Shown here in pieces: positions 1,884 through 40,586 of a DNA stretch of 64,000 bases. Where the stretch lies: contig JBAZFG010000004.1 in NCBI GenBank assembly GCA_041653515.1, positions 6,568-70,567 on the forward strand. The letters are read 5' to 3'. Both the position numbers and the translations under genes were made by a program. How positions within the stretch are numbered: the stretch's first letter is position 1; each line of letters begins with the position of its first letter. The stretch is from Candidatus Nanoarchaeia archaeon (GTDB taxonomy: Archaea > Nanobdellota > Nanobdellia > WJKC01). The notes under the pieces were generated by a model, which was not told the origin of the DNA, ran no database searches, and saw only the letters and a list, made by a program, of their open reading frames with translations.

Positions 1884-3899
1884 ATGGCGGAAATTGATGA
1901 CAGGATTGCTGCTCTTGCTAAAATGTTTAATAACACTACTGATGAAAATGAAAAAGCAGGCATTCAAAAGCAAATTGAGACTCTAAAATTATTGAGGAAT
2001 AAACAATCACAGGAGAGCACTGAAAAAGAGAAAACCTCTAAAGAAAAATACGAAGAAGAATCACAGGAGAGCACTGAAAAAGAGAAAACCTCTAAAGAAA
2101 AATACGAAGAAGAATATTATAAAAAGAAACTTGAAACTGAAAGTGCTGCTCAAAAAGCACAAAGTTCCTCTAAGACATTATTCAAACAGGGCTTGTCTTC
2201 TGGTTGGTTATTATTATTTATCGTTATGGCTGTTATTGGCTTCTTTTTAGTAATATTTAGCACATGGCTGGTTGGATTGCCATTAATCATTGCTGCAGGC
2301 GTGATAGCTTACAATAGAGGTAACTTAATGATACCAAGATTAACAGCAATACTAATCGCAATGTCATTCAAGTGGATGCCAATCATACCCCAATATGATT
2401 TAATCAGCGTTTTTGGCGTGACAATCGGTTTCATGGCAATAGTATTATTAATGCCTGAAGCCAAAGAGGGTAATAGTAAAAGCGGAGGGGTCTTTAAAGC
2501 AGGACCTGCTTTGTGGTGGGGTATTCTTGGTGTTATCATAACAGTTGGTTGGTCTATATTCATTTTTGCTGGAGTAACAAGCGGCACTACTATTGCGGCT
2601 GTCGCTGCTATTACTGGCGCAATGGTTGCGGGCAGTATTATCTGGAAGCAACCAATTAGTTCTGGTTGGAAAGGAATCTTAACACTAGCTTGTTTCTCGC
2701 CATTAATATTCCTCGGAGTTCAATACTTATTCATTGCAGGCGGCACAGCTCTTGGCGGCATCTTTGATGAAGTACAGCACTTACTAGGCCAAGGCATTGG
2801 TAGCACAGGCACATCACTTGACTGGTTATTAAACCCAACGCTGGCAGTGCAAGCTCAACTAAAACCACCAAGCACTGCAGCAACAACTACTAGTGGCACA
2901 GTCTCAAGCGTTAAATTAACTGTTACAGGGGATACCCTGCCAAGCACTGGTTGTTATGATTCCAGCCCATTCCAAATAATTGGTCGCATCAAGAATACAG
3001 GCACAGAGCATATCAGCTCGCTTGATGTTATAATGGAGCCTGACTGGTCTGGCGCGTCATTAACAAGTCAGTGCCGACAGATTAATTTGCCAACTGATTG
3101 CTCAACAACTATCACTTCAATCCCAACCGGTGTCACCTCAACCGTTGATTGCACAATTGAAAGCGTGCCGTCAAGTGATATTATAGGCGCGACAGCTACT
3201 CACACTTGTTATGTTGATATCACTGCAACAACAGGTTATCATAGCACTGCCCGACTGCCAATCCAATTCATTGAGTATGAGTATGGTCGCAGTAAGTTTG
3301 AGCAACACCAATTAACTCAACGAATCACGCCAAGCACGACTGGACCCGGCCCAGTTGAATTAAGCCTTGGTGGTTTTGAGCAACCAGTGCTTAATTATGT
3401 TAGCACAGGAAACGCGTCACCGCAGAAACTAACAATGATAACTACTATTAGTAATGACGGTACAGGTGATGTTAATAATTATGTTAGCGCTTACTTGTAC
3501 ATTCCTAATGTATTATTAGATGAAGGTCAATGCTCAGGCGCAGGCAATGGTTGGACTTGTATTAGTGAATTAAATTGTGATTCATTAAGCGATGAAGCTA
3601 AGACTAATTGCTTGAATTTCCTTACTTACAAGAATAATGGGTTAATCGCGGGTTATACTCAATTTGATTATGATTACGCTGACGAGTTATTAAATAATGA
3701 TTTCTCAATCTGCTTTTACAACAATGAGATTAATATTGATAATATTGAGACTAGCAAGTGCGTGTTAAAAGTTGGTGATGTAATGGATGGTGATAGTACT
3801 GCACTTAGGAAAACAATGCTAATAAGAGGCGATGTTCTTTACTCTTACAAAGTGACTGGTGAAGCCAGCTTCCAAGTCAAGGATTGTGATGTATCATGA
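1884..3899 (+). CDS. Polytopic membrane protein with N-terminal coiled/repeat region and C-terminal Thr/Ser/Cys-rich extracellular domain (CARDB-like NTGT motif)
   Basis: 671 aa. Tandem 18-aa repeat SQESTEKEKTSKEKYEEE x2. About 6-8 hydrophobic helices between aa 105-290. Downstream region contains IGRIKNTGTEHISSLDV, typical of DUF11/CARDB beta-sandwich domains. Stop overlaps the next start (ATGA). Confidence 0.6.
   Translation: MAEIDDRIAALAKMFNNTTDENEKAGIQKQIETLKLLRNKQSQESTEKEKTSKEKYEEESQESTEKEKTSKEKYEEEYYKKKLETESAAQKAQSSSKTLFKQGLSSGWLLLFIVMAVIGFFLVIFSTWLVGLPLIIAAGVIAYNRGNLMIPRLTAILIAMSFKWMPIIPQYDLISVFGVTIGFMAIVLLMPEAKEGNSKSGGVFKAGPALWWGILGVIITVGWSIFIFAGVTSGTTIAAVAAITGAMVAGSIIWKQPISSGWKGILTLACFSPLIFLGVQYLFIAGGTALGGIFDEVQHLLGQGIGSTGTSLDWLLNPTLAVQAQLKPPSTAATTTSGTVSSVKLTVTGDTLPSTGCYDSSPFQIIGRIKNTGTEHISSLDVIMEPDWSGASLTSQCRQINLPTDCSTTITSIPTGVTSTVDCTIESVPSSDIIGATATHTCYVDITATTGYHSTARLPIQFIEYEYGRSKFEQHQLTQRITPSTTGPGPVELSLGGFEQPVLNYVSTGNASPQKLTMITTISNDGTGDVNNYVSAYLYIPNVLLDEGQCSGAGNGWTCISELNCDSLSDEAKTNCLNFLTYKNNGLIAGYTQFDYDYADELLNNDFSICFYNNEINIDNIETSKCVLKVGDVMDGDSTALRKTMLIRGDVLYSYKVTGEASFQVKDCDVS
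2007..2114 (+). repeat. Perfect 54-bp tandem duplication (2 copies) inside the CDS, encoding an 18-aa repeat
   Basis: tcacaggagagcactgaaaaagagaaaacctctaaagaaaaatacgaagaagaa at 2007-2060 and again at 2061-2114. Confidence 0.9.
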
Positions 3900-4939
3900 A
3901 AAAATCATTAATAGCAATAATGGGCTTACTATTAATCTGTGGTTGCTTAGGTAATAATACTACGAGTACTGAAACTAAAATACAATCAACGCAAGGTATT
4001 GGCGTGCTAGAGTTCAAAGCAGTGGTTGATGACATGATAGCAAGCACTTACAATTACTTATTATTATCCATTAGGAATAACGCTGAAGGCAGTAGTGCTA
4101 AAAATATTATGGTCAGCCTTGAGAATGTTGAGCCATTCATGATTTATGAATGCAACCAAGAGCACGCGCCTAATGAGAAAAGAACTTCAGTCTGCAATCA
4201 ATTCTTTGATGATGTTGGCGAAGCTTACCGAACGCATAAAATTAATAATATGTTACCTGATGAAGAGATTCAATTCTTCTGGAATATTAGGGCGCCAACT
4301 GAGCAAGAAATAGTTAACTTAGCTTATGACCAGACAATTTATTACTCAATGAGTTATGATTATACCACGACAGTTACTCAAACAATTGCAGGTATCAGCC
4401 AAGCAGAGTACTTAGAGCGCAGTAAGGAAGGAGCAGTAACACTATCAGGCCAAACAATTAGTAGTCCAGGTGAAGTGAAAATAGAGAGCAAGACTCAGCA
4501 ACCAATAATATACACAGAAGGCAGTAGTATCCCACTGGATTTCACGCTTCAATTTGAATTAGATAATGTTGGAACAGGCGTGCCAAAACCAGGGAGCACA
4601 ATAATAGTGGCAGTTAAGAGTGATGAGTCAACCAGTGTTAATGAAGAATTAGCGCGCAGGGCTGGTTGGTTGCAGTATAGTGAAATACAATCAGCTTTTG
4701 ACGCTAAGTTCCCGTTAATTGAATTCGAGGAATTAACATCAACAATTAGAGAAGGCTTATGGATTACTAGTATTGATAGTAGTTTGATTAGGAGCAGTAG
4801 TTATTCGTTAATATTACCTGTGCAATTTAATACAGGAAATGTTTATGAACCACAAAAGATTTTAACCTTTAGTGCTTATATTTCATACACGTATTTAAAA
4901 GAAGGAAGCACCAGCATAAGTGTTTACCCAGTAGAGTGA
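3896..4939 (+). CDS. Putative lipoprotein or surface protein (lipobox-like LLLICGC), hypothetical
   Basis: N-terminus MKKSLIAIMGLLLICGCLGNNTT, with a signal peptide and Cys lipobox. Contains the CARDB-like motif FTLQFELDNVGTGVP. Confidence 0.6.
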   Translation: MKKSLIAIMGLLLICGCLGNNTTSTETKIQSTQGIGVLEFKAVVDDMIASTYNYLLLSIRNNAEGSSAKNIMVSLENVEPFMIYECNQEHAPNEKRTSVCNQFFDDVGEAYRTHKINNMLPDEEIQFFWNIRAPTEQEIVNLAYDQTIYYSMSYDYTTTVTQTIAGISQAEYLERSKEGAVTLSGQTISSPGEVKIESKTQQPIIYTEGSSIPLDFTLQFELDNVGTGVPKPGSTIIVAVKSDESTSVNEELARRAGWLQYSEIQSAFDAKFPLIEFEELTSTIREGLWITSIDSSLIRSSSYSLILPVQFNTGNVYEPQKILTFSAYISYTYLKEGSTSISVYPVE

Positions 4940-8543: not shown

Positions 8544-8720
8544 TCATAACACCTCCTTTACTTTAGCCAACACAATAGTCTTGCCTCCTGAAGGCTTAGC
8601 TATTAATTTACTGCAAGAATTACAATTAATCTTTGAAGTAGCTTTGCCGAAAATTACTTGCTCTTTATTGCATTCAGGGCAAATGACTTTCAGGAATTTA
8701 CTGGTTGTTTTTTTAGTCAT
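8544..8720 (-). CDS. rps27e: Ribosomal protein S27e
   Basis: Not in the ORF track. Reverse-strand ATG 8720-8718 (alternative ATG at 8723), stop at 8546-8544. Translation MTKKTTSKFLKVICPECNKEQVIFGKATSKINCNSCSKLIAKPSGGKTIVLAKVKEVL has the C4 zinc ribbon CPEC...CNSC. Conserved S27e-aIF2alpha linkage. Confidence 0.8.
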   Translation of the reverse strand: MTKKTTSKFLKVICPECNKEQVIFGKATSKINCNSCSKLIAKPSGGKTIVLAKVKEVL

Positions 8721-9292
8721 CATTCACTTAACACCTCCTTAATGGCTTCCTTTTCTAATAATAATTTAACAACGCTTAAGGGTAGGTTAGCAACGTCTTC
8801 TTGTTTGAATGGCCCGAGGGTTGATTGGCCCCACGCGAATTCAGGGAAGTCATTGATAAACCTGACTAATACGTTATTATCATTTAAGACAGGGTTGTCC
8901 TCTTTTTTAAGCTTTCTACCAGTTAGTTGATTAAAATAATCATTTAAAGTGTTTCTTAGTTGATTGTAAAGAATCGCTTCAAATGATAACATTCCTTCAG
9001 TTTCGGGTTTAACACCCATTCTAGTGTCAACCAGTACTTGGTTGAATATTTTTTTGGCGCGGTGCTCGAACACGCCTTTAAAACTCTTGCGCGCGTTAAC
9101 TAACTCATTCTTGGTTCGCTCTTTCACTTTCTGGGCAATGATATTATCATCGCTCTTATCAAGCATTGATTGTTTATCAATAATATACGAGTTAAAGCGG
9201 TCAATGAATGATTCGTCAACATCAGTTAGTTTATTGCTCTCACGCTCGTTGCGTTCAACAACCCTTAATTCATCATAAGTCAATAAGTCCAT
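8720..9292 (-). CDS. Hypothetical protein, possibly a GINS (Gins15-like) replication factor
   Basis: 190 aa, helical, no Cys motifs. Immediately downstream and co-directional with the primase gene. The Gins15-PriS neighbourhood is conserved in archaea. Assignment rests on context only. Confidence 0.3.
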   Translation of the reverse strand: MDLLTYDELRVVERNERESNKLTDVDESFIDRFNSYIIDKQSMLDKSDDNIIAQKVKERTKNELVNARKSFKGVFEHRAKKIFNQVLVDTRMGVKPETEGMLSFEAILYNQLRNTLNDYFNQLTGRKLKKEDNPVLNDNNVLVRFINDFPEFAWGQSTLGPFKQEDVANLPLSVVKLLLEKEAIKEVLSE

Positions 9293-9341: not shown

Positions 9342-10688
9342 TTATTTATTTTCTTTAGTTAACCCTGCTGGTTTTTTTGTAACGCCCTGCTTTTTTTTAC
9401 GACGCTGGGGCTGATTAGTAGTTGAAGAGCGACGCTTAGTTTTAGTCATCTTATGTTTATGTAATGCGTAAGTCACGGGGTTATTTATCTTAGCGCACAA
9501 GCCATCAGGAGCGCAGACGCCAATATCCTTATAATTAGGGCTTTTACAATTAGGCGGCATTAAACCACCTTGCTTGCAGGACCAGTCTATCTGAGCTTTA
9601 ATATAACCAGTTCTTAATGGTGATTTATTAGTTTCATTCCATTTTATTAATAATGCTTCAATTAACTCCCAATCATAACCGCACTTGTAATAAAAATTGA
9701 TTAACATGAATAACGCTCGCTTGCGACCATCAGTTAAGCCAGTTAGAATATTATTAATACAAGGAGGAAAGCAATTAGTATTAACAGCAGTTTTAGGTAC
9801 TGTTTTATTAATCATTGACACTGGTTTTTTTTCAGATTGAATTTTATCATGCCAATCAAAGGCTTCCCTGAATAAACGGCTAGCGTCACAAGTTTGTTCA
9901 AGAAAACCTAACTCAAAAGTAATGTTTTCTGGTCGGGCTGACTCAGGGTTAAAGTCAAGCACTTCGCTTGGCTTGATTGGCTTGCTCACCAACCACTTCT
10001 TCTCATTAATACTGTAAGGCGCTCTGATTAAATGCCTTGATGAAATAGCAATTGGATCAATATTAACTACTTTGAATGGGTCAAACTCGTTATTAACTAA
10101 TAACGCACTAGTCTCGACACCCATCTTAACTGCTATATTATTAATTGAACCAGTTCTTAATAACTCATCTTTCAGGAAGTCTTTGATAACCCATTGAATG
10201 TAGGACCCAATCACTCTTAACGCATCAGGGAATAAATTTTTTACTAACTCACCTTTGATTCGTTCAGGATTACTAAAAGACAAACCAATATGAAATCCTG
10301 TGCCGCCGCTAAACTTAATGCTGACTTCTTTAATGTCAAGTATTTCAAGCGCGTCAATAATTAATTTAGCGCATAAGCGTGAGTAATCAATAATTGGGCA
10401 GTCAACGTCAAAAATTAAGTCCCAGCCGCTTCTTAATGAATCAAGTTCTTTGCGGTTCATATCAGCTGACAAGGCCATTGGGTTAGTCCAGTGTTCTTCA
10501 CTGCAATGAAAACTTGATGCTCCACGCCTAATAACATCAAGTAACTCGCCTTCAAAACGGAATGATTGCGGTCGCTCGCCAAAGTAATTGCCAAAACGAG
10601 GGACTACTTCCCTGCCGCGGGAAAACTTTAACATGAAGTTAATGAAGCCCTGCTGTGAATAATATTTGATTAATTCAGAAGTTCTCAT
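9342..10688 (-). CDS. priS: DNA primase, PriS catalytic subunit fused to a PriL C-terminal (Fe-S) like domain
   Basis: N-terminal AEP primase motifs DLIFDVDCP and SGGTGFHIGLSF. C-terminal ~150 aa contains CFPPCI (the PPC motif of PriL-CTD) plus clustered Cys (CKQGG, NCKSP, GVCAPDGLCAK) and a basic tail. Confidence 0.75.
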   Translation of the reverse strand: MRTSELIKYYSQQGFINFMLKFSRGREVVPRFGNYFGERPQSFRFEGELLDVIRRGASSFHCSEEHWTNPMALSADMNRKELDSLRSGWDLIFDVDCPIIDYSRLCAKLIIDALEILDIKEVSIKFSGGTGFHIGLSFSNPERIKGELVKNLFPDALRVIGSYIQWVIKDFLKDELLRTGSINNIAVKMGVETSALLVNNEFDPFKVVNIDPIAISSRHLIRAPYSINEKKWLVSKPIKPSEVLDFNPESARPENITFELGFLEQTCDASRLFREAFDWHDKIQSEKKPVSMINKTVPKTAVNTNCFPPCINNILTGLTDGRKRALFMLINFYYKCGYDWELIEALLIKWNETNKSPLRTGYIKAQIDWSCKQGGLMPPNCKSPNYKDIGVCAPDGLCAKINNPVTYALHKHKMTKTKRRSSTTNQPQRRKKKQGVTKKPAGLTKENK

Positions 10689-10723: not shown

Positions 10724-11062
10724 TTGTTAATGAAACTAAAAGCCTTAACTAATGAATTACTTGAGTTATTGCCTGGCGCTGTTAAGGAATATCGCACGCC
10801 TGACGGCACGCGGATTGATGTTGCAGTGCCAGAAATAGGTTTGGCCATTGAATTAGAAAATACTTACAAATGGATTGACCGGCGAGTCTTGTTTAATGCA
10901 GTTAAAGCCCAGCGAGCTGGGTTCAAGGATTTAGTGATAATCTACCCGTTCAAGGATGACTGCATTAGGCGGTCATGGGTCATGAAGTATGTTAAGGAGT
11001 TAGGAATTAATTTAACAATAATCAAGCCTGATAAGATTAATAATTTAAAAAAGATAAAATAA
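10724..11062 (+). CDS. Hypothetical protein (possible nuclease-fold, weak)
   Basis: 112 aa. RIDVAVPEIGLAIELENTYKW is loosely reminiscent of PD-(D/E)xK or Hjc-type cores. No firm match. Confidence 0.35.
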   Translation: MLMKLKALTNELLELLPGAVKEYRTPDGTRIDVAVPEIGLAIELENTYKWIDRRVLFNAVKAQRAGFKDLVIIYPFKDDCIRRSWVMKYVKELGINLTIIKPDKINNLKKIK

Positions 11063-11075
11063 AAATTTAGTAATT

Positions 11076-11486
11076 TTAATTGTTGTCGTCTTCGCTTATC
11101 TGCCCTTCTAATTCCTCGGCTAAGACGGCTGCTTCCTGCCTGATTTTCTTGAGCGTGGCAATCAATCGTTTTTTCTCTTCGATTGATAAGCCAATCTTTA
11201 TGTAAGGCGCGGCTGCTTCCTTGAACTCACTAAGACCAAAGTAAGCGTAAGGCATCTTAGCCATTCGCTTGCTGATTTCAGTGGCAATATCACCCAGTAA
11301 TTTGTTTAATTCTTTCTTAACATCTGAGCGAATCATTGTCTTGCCAGTCTGAGCTTTAATTAATCTAACAACTGCAGCGTTAGGGAAAGGCAGTGAAGCG
11401 TCCTCTTCATCATCTTCGCTGTCAACAACGTCTTCTTCTTTGACTTCTTGTCCGTCAACAACTTCAATATCATCTTGTTTTGCCAT
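11076..11486 (-). CDS. Histone-fold-like protein with acidic N- and C-terminal tails
   Basis: Core SLPFPNAAVVRLIKAQTGKTMIRSDVKKELNKLLGDIATEISKRM resembles the alpha1-L1-alpha2 region of archaeal histone and NF-Y/NC2 folds. Flanked by D/E-rich tails. Confidence 0.4.
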   Translation of the reverse strand: MAKQDDIEVVDGQEVKEEDVVDSEDDEEDASLPFPNAAVVRLIKAQTGKTMIRSDVKKELNKLLGDIATEISKRMAKMPYAYFGLSEFKEAAAPYIKIGLSIEEKKRLIATLKKIRQEAAVLAEELEGQISEDDNN

Positions 11487-11612: not shown

Positions 11613-12308
11613 TTACACTCGTAAAACAACCTTCTTAAAGTAGGGCTTTAATAACTTGGCAAACTCTTTCAAATCAGCCTCAGAATAAGCCCGCTCATCC
11701 TTATACGACGGGTCAAGCACTTCACCATTACGGAATTGCTGCAACGAGTACAAATCAGAGCCATCTAACCACTCACCAATCTTAATAAAATCATCACGCG
11801 AGTGTAACCTTGGGAGAACAGTAGTCCTAAACTCATAAGGAACGCCACTAGACCGAATAAGGTTAATTGACTCCTGAATATCAGTCAAATTAACCCTAAC
11901 ACCAGCAGCCTCAGAGTAACGCTCAGGACTAGCCTTAATATCCATCGCAAGGTAATCAAGCAATTTAGCATCAATCAAACGCTTAAGGAGTTTCGGCAAC
12001 GAACCATTAGTATCAAGTTTAACTAACAAACCCTTAGCTTTAATCATTTTAATGAACTCATAAAGACCTGAAGAGAGCAATGGCTCACCACCAGTAATAC
12101 AAACACCCTCAAGCCAACCCTTACGCGAGTCAACAAAAGAAAAGAATTCATCCTCAGAAATAACAGGCAATGAACTAACACTATTAATTAATGAAGGATT
12201 ATGACAAAAAGGGCAACGGAAATCACAATTAGGCAGGAACACAGTACAAGCCACCTTTCCAGGATAATCAATTACAGTAGTTTTTTGCAGGCCAACAATA
12301 GAAATCAT
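11613..12308 (-). CDS. nrdG: Anaerobic ribonucleotide reductase activating protein (radical SAM)
   Basis: CDFRCPFCHN CxxxCxxC radical-SAM cluster. Start moved to the ATG at 12308 (MISIVGLQKTTVIDYPGKV), because the longer track ORF begins with a GTG inside the upstream gene. Confidence 0.85.
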   Translation of the reverse strand: MISIVGLQKTTVIDYPGKVACTVFLPNCDFRCPFCHNPSLINSVSSLPVISEDEFFSFVDSRKGWLEGVCITGGEPLLSSGLYEFIKMIKAKGLLVKLDTNGSLPKLLKRLIDAKLLDYLAMDIKASPERYSEAAGVRVNLTDIQESINLIRSSGVPYEFRTTVLPRLHSRDDFIKIGEWLDGSDLYSLQQFRNGEVLDPSYKDERAYSEADLKEFAKLLKPYFKKVVLRV

Positions 12309-12325: not shown

Positions 12326-12478
12326 TCAGCAACTGCACTCTTCTTGAAGCGCTTTATGCTCACTGAAAGTCTTACGGTGCTTAAACTCCTCTTTTTTACC
12401 ATCATTCCAGTTATTAATCGGCCTAAAATAACCAACCACTCGGCTAAAAACCTCGCACTTAGAACCACACTCACTCAT
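12326..12478 (-). CDS. NrdD C-terminal glycyl-radical domain encoded as a separate 50-codon ORF
   Basis: Translation MSECGSKCEVFSRVVGYFRPINNWNDGKKEEFKHRKTFSEHKALQEECSC. RVVGYFRP...NDGKKEEFKHR matches the class III RNR Gly-radical signature (E. coli RVCGYLG...NAGKQEEVKRR). Own SD GGAGGTGA 8 nt upstream of the ATG. The frame is shifted relative to the end of the nrdD body ORF. An in-frame TAA lies 2 codons upstream. Confidence 0.6.
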   Translation of the reverse strand: MSECGSKCEVFSRVVGYFRPINNWNDGKKEEFKHRKTFSEHKALQEECSC

Positions 12479-14969
12479 CTTTTACATCACCTCCTTTTAA
12501 TGCTTTAACAGAAACCATAACAGCGTCAGCAATACTGCTTGACTGCTTATCAGACATTAACGGGCAAGTATGATGCTCACCGCGAATATAACCATGAATA
12601 GGGCAAATACTAAAAGTAGGCGTAATACTAAAGTAAGGCAATCGAGTGTTCTCAGCAATCTTACGCACAAGAGCTTTACAACTATCACCATCAGTCATGC
12701 GCTCACCAAGGAATGTATGAAACATTGTTCCACCAGTATACAATGGCTGAATATCATTCTGATGACTTAAAGCCTCAAATAAATCATCAGTAAAATCAAC
12801 AGGCAACTGAGTTGAGTTAGTCAAGAAAGGATAATCATTACCACTTAAATGAATATCAGGATGAAGTTTCCTATCAAGTCTTGCAAGCCGATAAGAAGCC
12901 CCCTCAGCAGGCGTTGCCTCAAGATTATACAAACTACCTGACTCCTGCTGATAACGCTTTAATAATTCACGCATGAAATTAAGCGTCTCAATAGCAAAAG
13001 CCTTACCCTCAGGCGTTGATATATCCTTGCCTAAGAAATTAATACAAGCCTCGTTCATACCACAAATACCAATAGTTGAGAAATGATTCCTAAATGAGCC
13101 AAGATAAACCTTAGTATAAGGCATTAAACCATTTTTGAGATTACGATTAATTACTTTACGCTTCATCTCCAAAGAATCGCGAGCTAAATTCATGAAATGC
13201 TGCAAACTCTCAAAGTACTTGCGCTTATTACCCTTAGCAATATAGGCCATTCGATTAATATTAATAGTCACCACCCCAATACTGCCAGTACTGTCACCAG
13301 CACCAAAACCACCACCAGGCCGATTCATTAATTCCTTTAAATTAAGGTTTAACCTGCAACACATAGCCCTAATACTCTTAGGGTCGAGATTACTCCCAAT
13401 ATAATTCTGGAAATAAGGAATGCCATATTTAGCTGTAACTTCAAACAATAAATTAGCCACAGGGCTATCCCAATCAAAGTTTTTAGTCAGATTATAAGTT
13501 GGTATCGGGAAAGTAAAAATTCTACCCTTAGCATCACCGTCACGCATCACTTCAAGGAAAGCAGTATTAATAATATCAACTTCAGGCTGACAATCACCAT
13601 AAGTAAAATCCATCTTCTTGCCGCCAACTATTGCAGGCTCATCTTTCATATCCTGAGGAACAATTAAGTCAAAAGTCAGGTTAGAGAAAGGCATTTGACT
13701 GCCCCAACGCGAAGGAATATTAAGATTAAAAATAAGCTTTTGCATATTTTGTTTAACTTGTTTAAAAGTCAGTTTATCAGTTTTAATAAATGGAGCTAAT
13801 AACGTATCAACACTGCTAAAAGCTTGGGCACCAGCAAACTCCATTTGTAGGCAACCAATAAAATTAACAATCTGACCAACAACAACATCCATATGCTTAG
13901 CAGGCACTGTATCAACTTTATTAGAAACACCACCAAAACCTATAGTCAATAAATTCTTCAATGACCAACCAGCACAATAACCAACCACACCACAACTAAG
14001 GTCATGCAAGTGGAAGAAACCATTATTATGCGCATCCCTAATTGGTTGAGAGTAAATCTCATTAAGAGTGTAATTAGCAATTACTTTACCAGCAGTATGA
14101 AGCATCAAGCCAGAAAAAGAGTAATCAGTATTACTGTTCTCCTTAACGCGCCAATCAACTTGGTCCAAGTAATCATTAATAGTGTTATTAACATCAACAA
14201 AGATAGATTTAGACTCCCTTAATCGCTTATGCTCAGCCCGATAAAGAATGTATGCTTTAGCAGTCTTTGCATGACTATTCTTAATAAGCACTTCCTCAAC
14301 AGCATCCTGAACAGCTTCAACCTCAGGGTTGCCGCCAGGGAACTTACGACTTAATAAATTAACAACTTCATCCCCTAAATGATCAGCCAGTGATTGGTCA
14401 GCACCACCAATAGACTCAGCAGCCTTAAAAATTGCCTTAACAATCTTAGCTTTATCAAAATCAACCAAGAAACCTGAACGCTTCTTAACCATTCTTGGTG
14501 GTTCACCAGCAGGAGTATTGAGTAATCTTAATTTCTCAATTTCATGCTCAAAAACATCAACATCCTCAAACATTAAGTGAACACTGGCGTAACGAAGATA
14601 AGCAATCTTATCAACACTACGCAAACCATCCATAATTAATGAACCAATAGTCTTAGTTAGAACCTCATTTTCATTAGATTGTTTAAAAGTTAACTCAATA
14701 TTATTAACAATAACATCAACTTGCTCTTCAGTAACCGAGCGCTTATCACAAGCTTTTAGTATGCTAAGCTTTAATTTATCTTTATCAAAAGATTCACGAC
14801 GACCATCACTCTTAATAACCACTAAATCAAAACTTTCAACCCGTTCATAAGTAGTAAAACGCTTACCACAAGAAGTGCACTCACGACGACGACGCGAAAC
14901 ATCAAAGTCAGAAGTATCCCTTTTATCCACCACTTTTGTTTCATTACTCGTGCAATATGGACATTTCAT
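12471..14969 (-). CDS. nrdD: Anaerobic ribonucleoside-triphosphate reductase catalytic body with N-terminal NrdR-like Zn-ribbon plus two ATP-cones. Lacks the Gly-radical tail in frame.
   Basis: Start set to ATG 14969 (MKCPYCTSNETKVVDKRDTSDF..RRRECTSCGKRFTTYERVE), which has GAGGGG SD 8 nt upstream. A second ATP-cone follows (GFLVDFDKAKIVKAIFKAAE). Class III RNR core follows. Ends ..ICPIHGYIRGEHHTCPL..KGGDVKDE* without the RVxGY motif. Confidence 0.85.
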   Translation of the reverse strand: MKCPYCTSNETKVVDKRDTSDFDVSRRRRECTSCGKRFTTYERVESFDLVVIKSDGRRESFDKDKLKLSILKACDKRSVTEEQVDVIVNNIELTFKQSNENEVLTKTIGSLIMDGLRSVDKIAYLRYASVHLMFEDVDVFEHEIEKLRLLNTPAGEPPRMVKKRSGFLVDFDKAKIVKAIFKAAESIGGADQSLADHLGDEVVNLLSRKFPGGNPEVEAVQDAVEEVLIKNSHAKTAKAYILYRAEHKRLRESKSIFVDVNNTINDYLDQVDWRVKENSNTDYSFSGLMLHTAGKVIANYTLNEIYSQPIRDAHNNGFFHLHDLSCGVVGYCAGWSLKNLLTIGFGGVSNKVDTVPAKHMDVVVGQIVNFIGCLQMEFAGAQAFSSVDTLLAPFIKTDKLTFKQVKQNMQKLIFNLNIPSRWGSQMPFSNLTFDLIVPQDMKDEPAIVGGKKMDFTYGDCQPEVDIINTAFLEVMRDGDAKGRIFTFPIPTYNLTKNFDWDSPVANLLFEVTAKYGIPYFQNYIGSNLDPKSIRAMCCRLNLNLKELMNRPGGGFGAGDSTGSIGVVTININRMAYIAKGNKRKYFESLQHFMNLARDSLEMKRKVINRNLKNGLMPYTKVYLGSFRNHFSTIGICGMNEACINFLGKDISTPEGKAFAIETLNFMRELLKRYQQESGSLYNLEATPAEGASYRLARLDRKLHPDIHLSGNDYPFLTNSTQLPVDFTDDLFEALSHQNDIQPLYTGGTMFHTFLGERMTDGDSCKALVRKIAENTRLPYFSITPTFSICPIHGYIRGEHHTCPLMSDKQSSSIADAVMVSVKALKGGDVKDE

Positions 14970-15125
14970 TATTAAACCCCTCAAACAAGCACATACTACC
15001 GGTAGTGTTTTTTTAAACAAATACCCACTACATCTTGTTAGTATCGCTAAAATAGTAATAAATCATTCTTGTATATAAACCTATTTAGGGACAAAGTTTT
15101 CTGTTGTCCATTAATATATTTTTTA

Positions 15126-28043: not shown

Positions 28044-28157
28044 GCTTCGGTAGCTCAGAGGTAGTAGCGCTGCTCCGGTACGCTCACTTCGTTTATGTAA
28101 TAACGAGAGTTGAGCCTAGAAAGGCAGAGGTCGTGGGTCCAATTCCCATCCGAAGCT
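28044..28157 (+). tRNA. tRNA with 41-nt canonical 37/38 intron. Anticodon probably GGT (Thr).
   Basis: Acceptor GCTTCGG/CCGAAGC. D-arm GCTC..TAGC. Anticodon stem CTGCT/GGCAG (28070-74 / 28123-27). Loop CCGGTA|A, exon1 ends at 28080, intron 28081-28121. T-arm GTGGG-TCCAATT-CCCAT. Discriminator T28157. C33 is unusual, so anticodon identity is tentative. Confidence 0.65.
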
Positions 28158-32685: not shown

Positions 32686-32838
32686 AAACAATCTATTCTT
32701 TCATCTTTACATCCAATCTTAGCTCAATAAACCCTTTTCTCGCTTCGCTCCAAAAGTATTTCATCCCAAAATTAATGCGCTTAGTAATCTTTTTAAAACA
32801 ATCTATTCTTTCATCTTTGTATCCCGTCTTAGCTCAAT
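32685..32838 (+). repeat. 44-bp direct repeat x2 (110 bp apart) duplicating the tRNA-Tyr upstream region and the first ~16 nt of the tRNA
   Basis: aaaacaatctattctttcatctttacatccaatcttagctcaat (32685-32728) versus aaaacaatctattctttcatctttgtatcccgtcttagctcaat (32795-32838). Confidence 0.8.
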
Positions 32839-32958
32839 GGTAGAGCGCATGGCTGTAGACCAATACTGGATTCAAAATATTCTCGTGTTGGGGAAAAGCG
32901 TGCATTGAGCAGGCATTCAGATACCATGAGGTTCCCGGTTCAAATCCGGGAGACGGGA
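32823..32958 (+). tRNA. tRNA-Tyr (GTA) with 64-nt intron at 37/38
   Basis: C1:G72 acceptor CCCGTCT/AGACGGG, which is the archaeal Tyr identity. D-arm GCTC-AATGGTA-GAGC. Anticodon stem CATGG/CCATG. Anticodon GTA at 32855-57. Intron 32859-32922. T-arm CCCGG-TTCAAAT-CCGGG. Discriminator A32958. No encoded CCA. Confidence 0.8.
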
Positions 32959-39701: not shown

Positions 39702-39744
39702 ATAGTAATCCTTAAAAATAGGTCTTTGGTTTCATTTTACAATT

Positions 39745-39817
39745 GCTTCGGTAGTCTAGTGGTCTAGGATCTCGGACTGTCGATCCGGGGACCCGGGTTC
39801 AAATCCCGGCCGGAGCG
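39745..39817 (+). tRNA. tRNA-Asp (GTC), no intron
   Basis: Acceptor GCTTCGG/CCGGAGC. D-arm GTCT-AGTGGTCTA-GGAT. Anticodon stem TCGGA/TCCGG with loop CTGTCGA. T-arm CCGGG-TTCAAAT-CCCGG. Discriminator G. 73 nt. Confidence 0.85.
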
Positions 39818-39880
39818 GTTAAAACAAGCGACGGCAGGGGCCTGGAATTTATTCCAGTGCACCGGCCGAAGCGATTATCT

Positions 39881-40446: not shown

Positions 40447-40586
40447 GGGCCCGTAACTCAGTCTGGTTAGAGTACTTGGCTTTTACGTCGCTACGCTCCT
40501 CCGTCCTTACGGACGGACGCTCGCTTGCTAAAACAAGCGGTGACGAGGATACCAAGGAGTCGCGGGTTCGAATCCCGTCGGGCTCA
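40447..40586 (+). tRNA. tRNA-Lys (TTT) with 65-nt GC-rich intron at 37/38
   Basis: Acceptor GGGCCCG/CGGGCTC (G2:U71). D-arm ACTC..GAGT. Anticodon stem CTTGG/CCAAG. Loop CTTTTA|A. Intron 40486-40550. T-arm GCGGG-TTCGAAT-CCCGT. Discriminator A40586. Confidence 0.75.

Follow-up and report, generated by a model that had tools for sequence, protein, structure and literature searches.

We examined a 64,000-nucleotide stretch of contig JBAZFG010000004.1 from a Candidatus Nanoarchaeia archaeon (the window), which encodes a class III ribonucleotide reductase (RNR) in two parts. The gene nrdD ends before the glycyl-radical motif, and the motif is encoded by a separate open reading frame (ORF) of 50 codons that overlaps the end of nrdD in a different frame. 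From sequence comparisons, we conclude that this is very probably a genuine and conserved class III RNR that needs both polypeptides, one of them an autonomous radical subunit. This conclusion rests on the split, the internal Shine-Dalgarno (SD) sequence, and the independent ATG start codon, all of which are found in relatives; on the recurrence of the split in 33 of 163 related loci; on purifying selection on the small ORF; and on the large family of free-standing small proteins to which its product belongs. An earlier note on the window had listed a two-polypeptide enzyme as one of three explanations, and it is this one that the evidence favors. Each truncated body that could be checked is accompanied by the small ORF as a coding unit of its own that is under selection.

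The body ORF of nrdD (12471–14969, minus strand) encodes 832 amino acids plus a stop codon. Its start is likely the ATG of MKCPYC at 14969, which is NrdR-like; the ORF list opens instead at a TTG at 15020. The protein ends with ...KALKGGDVKDE-TGA (TCPLMSDKQSSSIADAVMVSVKALKGGDVKDE-TGA; stop codon at 12471–12473). The earlier note correctly described this end and the absence of the RVxGY glycyl-radical motif from the body ORF, but its length of 833 amino acids should be 832 if counted from MKCPYC. The body contains, in order, an NrdR-like zinc ribbon and ATP-cone, a second ATP-cone, the NRDD barrel up to the third zinc ligand, and a tail of 29 amino acids. It matches positions 1–525 of 562 of Pfam NRDD (PF13597; E = 3e-161, 538 bits versus a cutoff of 26), which places the catalytic domain at 12561–14141 (minus strand), and it matches positions 4–650 of 684 of NCBIfam NF006126 (999 bits versus a cutoff of 548). 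The body thus has the barrel of an NrdD by curated thresholds, but the RVxGY loop that should be on the barrel's own polypeptide is encoded by the next ORF.

That ORF (12326–12478, minus strand) encodes 50 amino acids plus a stop codon (MSECGSKCEVFSRVVGYFRPINNWNDGKKEEFKHRKTFSEHKALQEECSC). As the earlier note had recognized, it is in another frame and carries the glycyl-radical motif: RVVGY lies at 12428–12442, with the radical glycine (G16) at 12431–12433. The product matches positions 526–562 of 562 of Pfam NRDD (E = 4e-11), so the profile is divided exactly between the body (1–525) and the small ORF (526–562). It also matches the last 35–40 positions of four NrdD models in NCBIfam. These matches are far beyond chance. 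A cysteine that will be important below, Cys4, is encoded at 12467–12469.

The cognate activase is encoded alongside. The nrdG gene (11613–12308, minus strand; 231 amino acids) encodes a radical S-adenosylmethionine (SAM) protein of the NrdG2 type (TIGR02495; E = 3e-59, 200 bits versus a cutoff of 131), and its start at 12308 is 17 nt past the stop codon of the small ORF, in agreement with the gene call on an independently assembled contig (L161, described below). The nrdD body, the small ORF, and nrdG form a co-directional, overlapping operon, with the SD sequence of the small ORF inside the last codons of the body. All of the profile matches at this locus are to class III NrdD; models of class II RNR reached scores far under their cutoffs, with the ATP-cone only.

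The junction has the signals expected of a separate gene. An SD-like sequence, GGAGGTGA, lies at 12487–12494 (minus strand), with an 8-nt spacer to the ATG of the small ORF at 12476–12478, and an in-frame TAA is found two codons 5' of that ATG, at 12482–12484. Both features had been noted earlier and were located as described, while the run of four A's that the earlier note placed at 12482–12485 is actually at 12480–12483. SD-like motifs precede 18 of the 51 long ORFs of the window, versus a background of 2.7%. The body and the small ORF overlap by 8 nt (ATGAGTGA) in differing frames. The SD sequence is encoded by K-G-G-D, the last codons of the body tail. This tail (residues 804–832, LMSDKQSSSIADAVMVSVKALKGGDVKDE; 12474–12560, minus strand) is an insert that is not present in contiguous NrdDs. 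A motif in it, (V/I)PVKASKGG(D/E), is common to five other homologs (P0055–P0057, P0062, and P0120), and the codons for its K-G-G-D/E are the SD sequence.

The split is present in an independent assembly and in relatives. Over 3,357 bp that include the body, the small ORF, nrdG, and the A run, the Logan assembly of SRR18595300 (contig L161) has exactly the sequence of the window, and the identical 832-amino-acid body is already a called gene in public assemblies (P0054). The closest relative, L001, is 80% identical to the window's body (in the best tblastn segment) and has the junction aaaGGAGGTGAggtttcagATG, with a 14-nt overlap. L162 and L163, from two Joint Genome Institute (JGI) samples that differ by single-nucleotide polymorphisms, are 78% identical (body P0055) and have the junction aaaGGAGGTGAcgagataaATG, with an 8-nt overlap and no comparable A run. 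L164 is 76% identical (body P0057) and has the junction GGAGGTGAtatttgaaATG, with a 1-nt gap. The internal GGAGGTGA, its spacing, and the independent ATG are kept in all of these, and in L162–L164 gene callers annotated the small gene, with its match to Pfam NRDD. A metagenome scan for relatives above 80% identity found none (the best was 75%). The earlier note had suggested a comparison with related genomes as a check, and in these relatives both the split and the internal SD sequence are conserved. By way of contrast, one otherwise contiguous nrdD gene (L128, 646–1350) appears to be broken within the radical loop (RPVTH / HDGKKQEF), and neither a start codon nor an SD sequence follows the break. 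This looks like a true frameshift or an assembly error.

To see how widespread the arrangement is, we searched 163 related loci, drawn from metagenomes and from collections with one genome per species, using a hidden Markov model of the small proteins. In 131 nrdD genes, a single ORF carries both the barrel and the radical loop. The split is found in 33 loci, which together have 34 small radical ORFs. A radical ORF lies downstream of all the split bodies for which this could be checked (L084 runs off the end of its contig). The small ORF is in the +1 frame relative to the body in 17 cases, in the +2 frame in nine, and in the same frame with intervening stop codons in eight; at the extremes, the two ORFs overlap by 14 nt or lie more than 100 nt apart. 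None of the small ORFs lacks a start codon of its own, and in most cases an SD sequence precedes it. By database labels, the split forms are found in many uncultured archaea and bacteria, among them DPANN archaea, bacteria of the Candidate Phyla Radiation (CPR), Spirochaetota/Leptospirales, and others. In a neighbor-joining tree of 149 bodies, one deep clade is wholly split; otherwise the split state is scattered, with at least 13 changes by parsimony (neighbor-joining is a crude method, so this number is indicative only). We found no contiguous NrdD with the usual RVxGY that was followed by an extra small ORF among 164 loci. Both kinds of gene are present in just two loci, L060 and L064, and there the small ORF is behind the split body. 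Immediately upstream of the split NrdD and its small ORF, these CPR loci have a contiguous NrdD paralog (254–2467 in L060 and 315–2462 in L064) in which the motif reads RVVGK rather than RVVGY.

We also searched with the proteins themselves. Of the 120 best database homologs of the body, 42 stop no more than a few dozen residues past the zinc ligands. A word-index search with the small ORF found 53 proteins, all of which have 42–73 amino acids and a match to Pfam NRDD. An exhaustive search of 1.84 billion cluster representatives with a profile of the small proteins gave 4,972 matches, and the best 150 of these all have 48–200 amino acids.

We then compared small ORFs by their rates of nonsynonymous (dN) and synonymous (dS) substitution. 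The window versus L001 had dN = 0.34 and dS = 2.5 (dN/dS of about 0.14), L028 versus L031 had dN = 0.22 and dS = 2.3 (dN/dS = 0.09), and L051b versus L155 had dN = 0.15 and dS = 1.2 (dN/dS = 0.13). In the remaining pairs, synonymous sites were saturated and 55–78% of the residues were retained. The low dN/dS and the retained residues indicate that the small frame has been held by purifying selection over a long divergence.

The position of the cut relative to the zinc site gives further information. In NrdD from Thermotoga maritima, the zinc ion is held by CxxxHx6CxxC (PMC4493059). In a phmmer alignment to this protein (4COI/4U3E), the window's body reaches CP606 and the small ORF takes over at C608. 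(A junction peptide of 98 amino acids had no match in the PDB; it was a query of 349 amino acids that gave the T. maritima alignment.) The body has three ligands, CPIH...C, within 12564–12605 (minus strand): C789 (12603–12605), H792 (12594–12596), and C802 (12564–12566). These columns are invariant in an alignment (A1) of 72 contiguous homologs and eight bodies that lack the glycyl-radical domain. Cys4 of the small ORF falls in column C836 of the same alignment, which is near-invariant, and aligns with the last cysteine of CPxC in contiguous proteins. The window encodes ...C-P-L, the 29-amino-acid tail, a stop codon, M-S-E, and then C-G-S-K-C-E-V-F-S-R-V-V-G-Y; if the tail and the junction are removed, the standard CPxCGxxxEVxSRVVGY is restored. 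By these alignments, the cut is within the second ligand pair (CPxC), with three ligands on the body and the fourth position at Cys4 of the small ORF. The earlier note had put the split between the two cysteine pairs, and this needs to be corrected.

We tabulated the zinc ligands for 33 pairs of body and small protein, left out three with an ambiguous body motif, and tested the other 30. If the body lacks a fourth ligand after CP, then the small protein has a cysteine (10 of 10 pairs), and it sits five residues before a conserved glutamate, which is the fourth-ligand position of the contiguous enzymes. If the body has CPxC or CPxxH, then the homologous cysteine is usually absent from the small protein (18 of 20 pairs). 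This complementarity across the 30 pairs supports completion of the zinc site in trans, and it fits a zinc site that would always be completed, in cis or in trans. There are three architectural types. In the DPANN type, to which the window belongs, the fourth ligand would be supplied by the small protein. In a Spirochaetota type, the body has CPx(D/E)H and the small protein has no cysteine. In the CPR-like type, the body has CPKCD and the small protein ends in ...RTxCEV. In some pairs (L024, L160, L104, and L141), heptad-like body tails are accompanied by heptad-like N-termini of the small proteins, and these segments look like a putative tethering coiled coil.

Some of the small proteins have additional features. 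In L104 (in a stop-to-stop ORF that opens at 3444), L141 (opening at 3529), P0231, and P0282, the radical loop is followed by a glutaredoxin- or thioredoxin-like domain with CPNC; the matches of P0231 and P0282 to Pfam Glutaredoxin range from weak to marginal. In L104 and L141, the coiled-coil-like N-terminus of the small protein mirrors the coiled-coil-like tail of the body. The small protein of L148 (stop-to-stop ORF opening at 2421) has its own CxxC...CxxC segment, which resembles a zinc ribbon, before the radical loop, and its body keeps CPKC. In L051, a metagenome-assembled genome of Spirochaetota, two small radical ORFs are in tandem behind one truncated body (4334–4513 and 4568–4741). 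They are 72% identical (dN = 0.24 and dS = 0.85), which makes this a duplicated radical subunit.

To consider how the two proteins might fit together, we ran AlphaFold2 on an artificial concatenation of the body and the small protein. The mean predicted local distance difference test (pLDDT) of the model was 83.6, with confident values of 74–88 in the region of the radical loop and low values of about 55 in the tail. In comparisons using Foldseek, the model matched solved NrdD structures with TM-scores (normalized to the target) of 0.63–0.78, and its N-terminus matched E. coli NrdR structures at 41% identity.

These results suggest how the enzyme could work. Ribosomes would start the small ORF at its own SD sequence and ATG, probably in connection with their termination on the body; coupling or reinitiation over the 8-nt overlap is a plausible route of expression. 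The small protein would then dock on the body, and its Cys4 would complete the Zn(Cys,His,Cys) site in trans. The loop with Gly16 (EVFSRVVGYFRPINNWNDGKKEEF) would be inserted into the barrel beside the finger-loop cysteines C537 and C538. NrdG would place the radical on Gly16, with the small protein either free or docked, and normal NrdD chemistry would presumably follow. More speculatively, cleavage by oxygen at the radical glycine would destroy just the 50-residue subunit, which could be cheaply replaced. Published findings fit with some of these steps. The radical domain of NrdD is a mobile unit that is able to leave the barrel (PMC11226230), the zinc domain is thought to contact NrdG (PMC4493059), and YfiD is an example of a free-standing radical domain that can become activated and is able to dock into a body (PMC8683613).

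We considered several other explanations for the split. If a sequencing or assembly error had added a nucleotide to the A run, as the earlier note proposed, then nrdD would really be contiguous, and removing one A at 12480–12483 does give a single continuous ORF. However, the independent assembly is identical there; relatives with 74–80% identity, from other samples and without such an A run, have the same split and SD sequence; and the "repaired" gene would keep an insert of about 30 amino acids inside CPxC, which we found in no contiguous homolog. Furthermore, L128 shows what an apparent random frameshift looks like: the break is in the middle of the loop, and no start codon or SD sequence follows. 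As far as sequence allows, the indel is refuted, and we give it next to no probability. A programmed +1 frameshift, or some other recoding, could instead join the two ORFs into an NrdD of about 880 amino acids, so that the split would be only apparent. This would make sense of the 8-nt overlap of the frames, of the A-AAA-G context between the TAA of the small frame and the TGA of the body, and of the +1 frame of the small ORF in many of the closest relatives. Against this, the frame varies among loci (+1, +2, or the same with stop codons), and so does the spacing, with gaps of over 100 nt; no slippery sequence is common even to the window's clade (GTAAAAGATGAGTGA versus GAGATAAATGCCTGA versus ATATTTGAAATG); every small ORF has a start codon of its own, most with an SD sequence; and the fused product would hold the insert within CPxC. 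We consider recoding to be very unlikely as the explanation for the split. Of the earlier note's frameshift or reinitiation device, coupling or reinitiation is still plausible as the means of expression. Two other ideas were rejected. Read-through of the body's TGA would meet the next stop codon after three codons, and an intein, split intein, or mobile element at the junction does not agree with an insert of 29 amino acids, with no extra ORF and no intein domain. (Inteins with LAGLIDADG domains (PF14890 and PF14528) are present in four NrdD homologs of 1,068–1,281 amino acids, P0076, P0118, P0158, and P0160; mobile-element insertions do occur in this NrdD clade, but these are not at the split point.)

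It is also conceivable that a reduced genome is losing nrdD as a decaying pseudogene, with the small ORF as a remnant that is no longer translated. Genome reduction and the loss of biosynthetic genes are features of DPANN archaea, and a gene caller skipped the small ORF on one contig. But the purifying selection on the small ORF excludes a pseudogene or an untranslated remnant; its start codon and SD sequence are conserved; 33 loci from several phyla retain an intact body gene, activase gene, and small ORF; the zinc ligands of the two proteins are complementary; and there are derived small proteins that have gained a glutaredoxin domain or a zinc ribbon of their own. We regard decay as extremely unlikely. 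An equally remote idea is that the small protein is a true spare part, which would repair oxygen damage to a complete NrdD encoded elsewhere in the genome, as GrcA does for pyruvate formate-lyase (PFL). The analogy to YfiD/GrcA (PMC8683613) and the tandem small ORFs of L051 would fit with this. However, the small ORF is always directly behind a body that lacks the domain, the 164 loci include no extra small ORF behind a contiguous NrdD with RVxGY, and in L060 and L064 it follows the split body rather than the contiguous paralog.

Some observations do count against an obligate two-polypeptide enzyme. The exact product of the small ORF is not a called gene on record, and it was skipped in the public annotation of the Logan contig (L161). 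The sequence of the window's lineage may allow a minor +1 frameshift product, by a slip at AAA-G. Docking and the completion of the zinc site in trans are things we infer from the alignment and from the model of an artificial fusion. The complementarity of the ligands is significant (p = 2e-6, Fisher's test) if the pairs are counted as independent despite their shared ancestry. Overall, we still consider two polypeptides with an autonomous radical subunit to be very probable.

A broader proposal goes beyond this, and we hold it tentatively, at a little less than even chances. It is that this is an undescribed two-subunit form of the enzyme that has been split or re-fused many times (in DPANN, CPR, Spirochaetota, and others), with a radical cartridge of about 50 amino acids that is exchangeable. 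The zinc site would span both polypeptides, or another tether (such as coiled-coil tails) would hold them together; NrdG would be able to activate the free peptide; and only the cartridge would be replaced after cleavage by oxygen. If this is true, then glycyl-radical enzymes other than the formate lyases would have their first spare-part-like system, and the radical domain would be a transferable module that is also found fused to glutaredoxin. A split NrdD is not described in the open-access literature or the bioRxiv preprints that we searched, and it may be mentioned elsewhere (such as in the notes of RNRdb).

In any case, the family is a candidate autonomous radical-domain protein for an essential enzyme of anaerobic deoxynucleotide (dNTP) synthesis, and it makes an open question testable. 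It offers a natural separation of radical installation from catalysis in NrdD, which would be useful for biochemistry, and it suggests a possible low-cost route for repairing oxygen damage in anaerobes with small genomes. The repeated splitting at one structural seam and the fusion to glutaredoxin also bear on the modular evolution of glycyl-radical enzymes. There is a practical consequence for annotation as well. Roughly one in three of the closest NrdD homologs has no radical domain and would be taken for a truncated or non-functional protein. Because the body looks truncated and the small gene is sometimes not called (as in L161), metabolic reconstructions for DPANN and CPR genomes could score RNR as broken.

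Other features of the locus and of the window are as follows. The module at the N-terminus of the body (14529–14969, minus strand) is that of a complete NrdR repressor, a zinc ribbon plus ATP-cone, and is fused in frame to NrdD. It matches Pfam Zn_ribbon_NrdR and all of TIGR00244 (positions 1–147 of 147; E = 1e-48), and it precedes the enzyme's own ATP-cone. The fusion is kept in many DPANN homologs, some of which are named "NrdD/transcriptional regulator NrdR" by IMG. Beyond nrdG, the ORF at 9342–10688 (minus strand) has weak matches to the small and large subunits of DNA primase, like a fused PriS-PriL, and the ORF at 8720–9292 (minus strand) matches the C-terminal domain of GINS51; these matches are below the Pfam gathering scores. 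With such primase-like and GINS51-like ORFs nearby, the operon appears to be in a DNA-replication neighborhood. Between nrdG and the primase-like ORF (10724–11486) are ORFs of 112 amino acids (plus strand) and 136 amino acids (minus strand) with no match in Pfam. In L161 and L162, nrdG is likewise followed by genes of 136 amino acids and then, on the opposite strand, 110–112 amino acids. Finally, three Rfam tRNA matches on the plus strand (28044–28157, 32823–32958, and 40447–40586) are 114–140 nt long, versus 71 positions in the model, and look like intron-containing archaeal tRNAs; ARAGORN reports one of the four Rfam tRNAs, a tRNA-Asp at 39744–39818.

How does this enzyme compare to known systems? 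In most respects, it is like the canonical NrdD/NrdG of T. maritima, phage T4, and P. copri: it has the catalytic barrel, the ATP-cone, the finger-loop cysteines, a predicted zinc site that adjoins the radical loop, the RVxGY motif, and a neighboring radical-SAM activase. It differs from canonical NrdD in that a separate polypeptide of 50 amino acids carries the radical loop, as well as the predicted fourth zinc ligand in this lineage; in that the body has a 29-amino-acid tail that is not in contiguous enzymes; and in that a whole NrdR is fused to the N-terminus.

The small protein itself resembles GrcA/YfiD and Y06I of phage T4, which are also small free-standing proteins that consist essentially of a glycyl-radical loop. 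Activation of GrcA/YfiD depends on the cognate activase, and the protein has to dock into a body without a working radical domain (PMC8683613). Homologs of the small ORF, with 42–73 amino acids, are likewise called as separate genes. But GrcA is homologous to the C-terminus of PFL and belongs to the Gly_radical family (Pfam PF01228 / IPR011140), while the small ORF matches only NRDD/NrdD models. GrcA rescues a full-length enzyme that has been cleaved by oxygen, whereas the body considered here never has the domain, so the small protein would be obligate. GrcA also has no role as a zinc ligand, in contrast to the putative role of Cys4. The analogy to GrcA/YfiD in the earlier note holds for a small autonomous radical subunit; it fails for the family (NRDD, not Gly_radical) and probably also for the role as a spare. 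In function, the enzyme would be like one that depends on GrcA permanently. A 2026 review describes the formate lyases as the only class of glycyl-radical enzymes with small spare-part proteins (PMC13450708), and autonomous radical-domain proteins for glycyl-radical enzymes beyond PFL have been speculated about (PMC8683613).

RNRs in pieces are known from other classes. The class II enzyme NrdJa/NrdJb of Pseudomonas aeruginosa is similarly encoded by two adjacent genes, and its C-terminal piece has a zinc-finger region (PMC9669993). It differs in that it is B12-dependent, has no glycyl radical, and is split at another point, with a large second piece that carries reducing cysteines and not the radical site. 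The nrdA gene of phage Aeh1 is in pieces, split by the homing endonuclease mobE; Nanoarchaeum equitans has split protein genes; and Nanoarchaeota-like lineages are known for split genes. Like these, the NrdD described here is an essential enzyme that would be made as two polypeptides and then reassembled. Unlike nrdA of Aeh1, it has no mobile-element gene at the junction, and the split is found repeatedly, at one structural position, in phyla of archaea and of bacteria.

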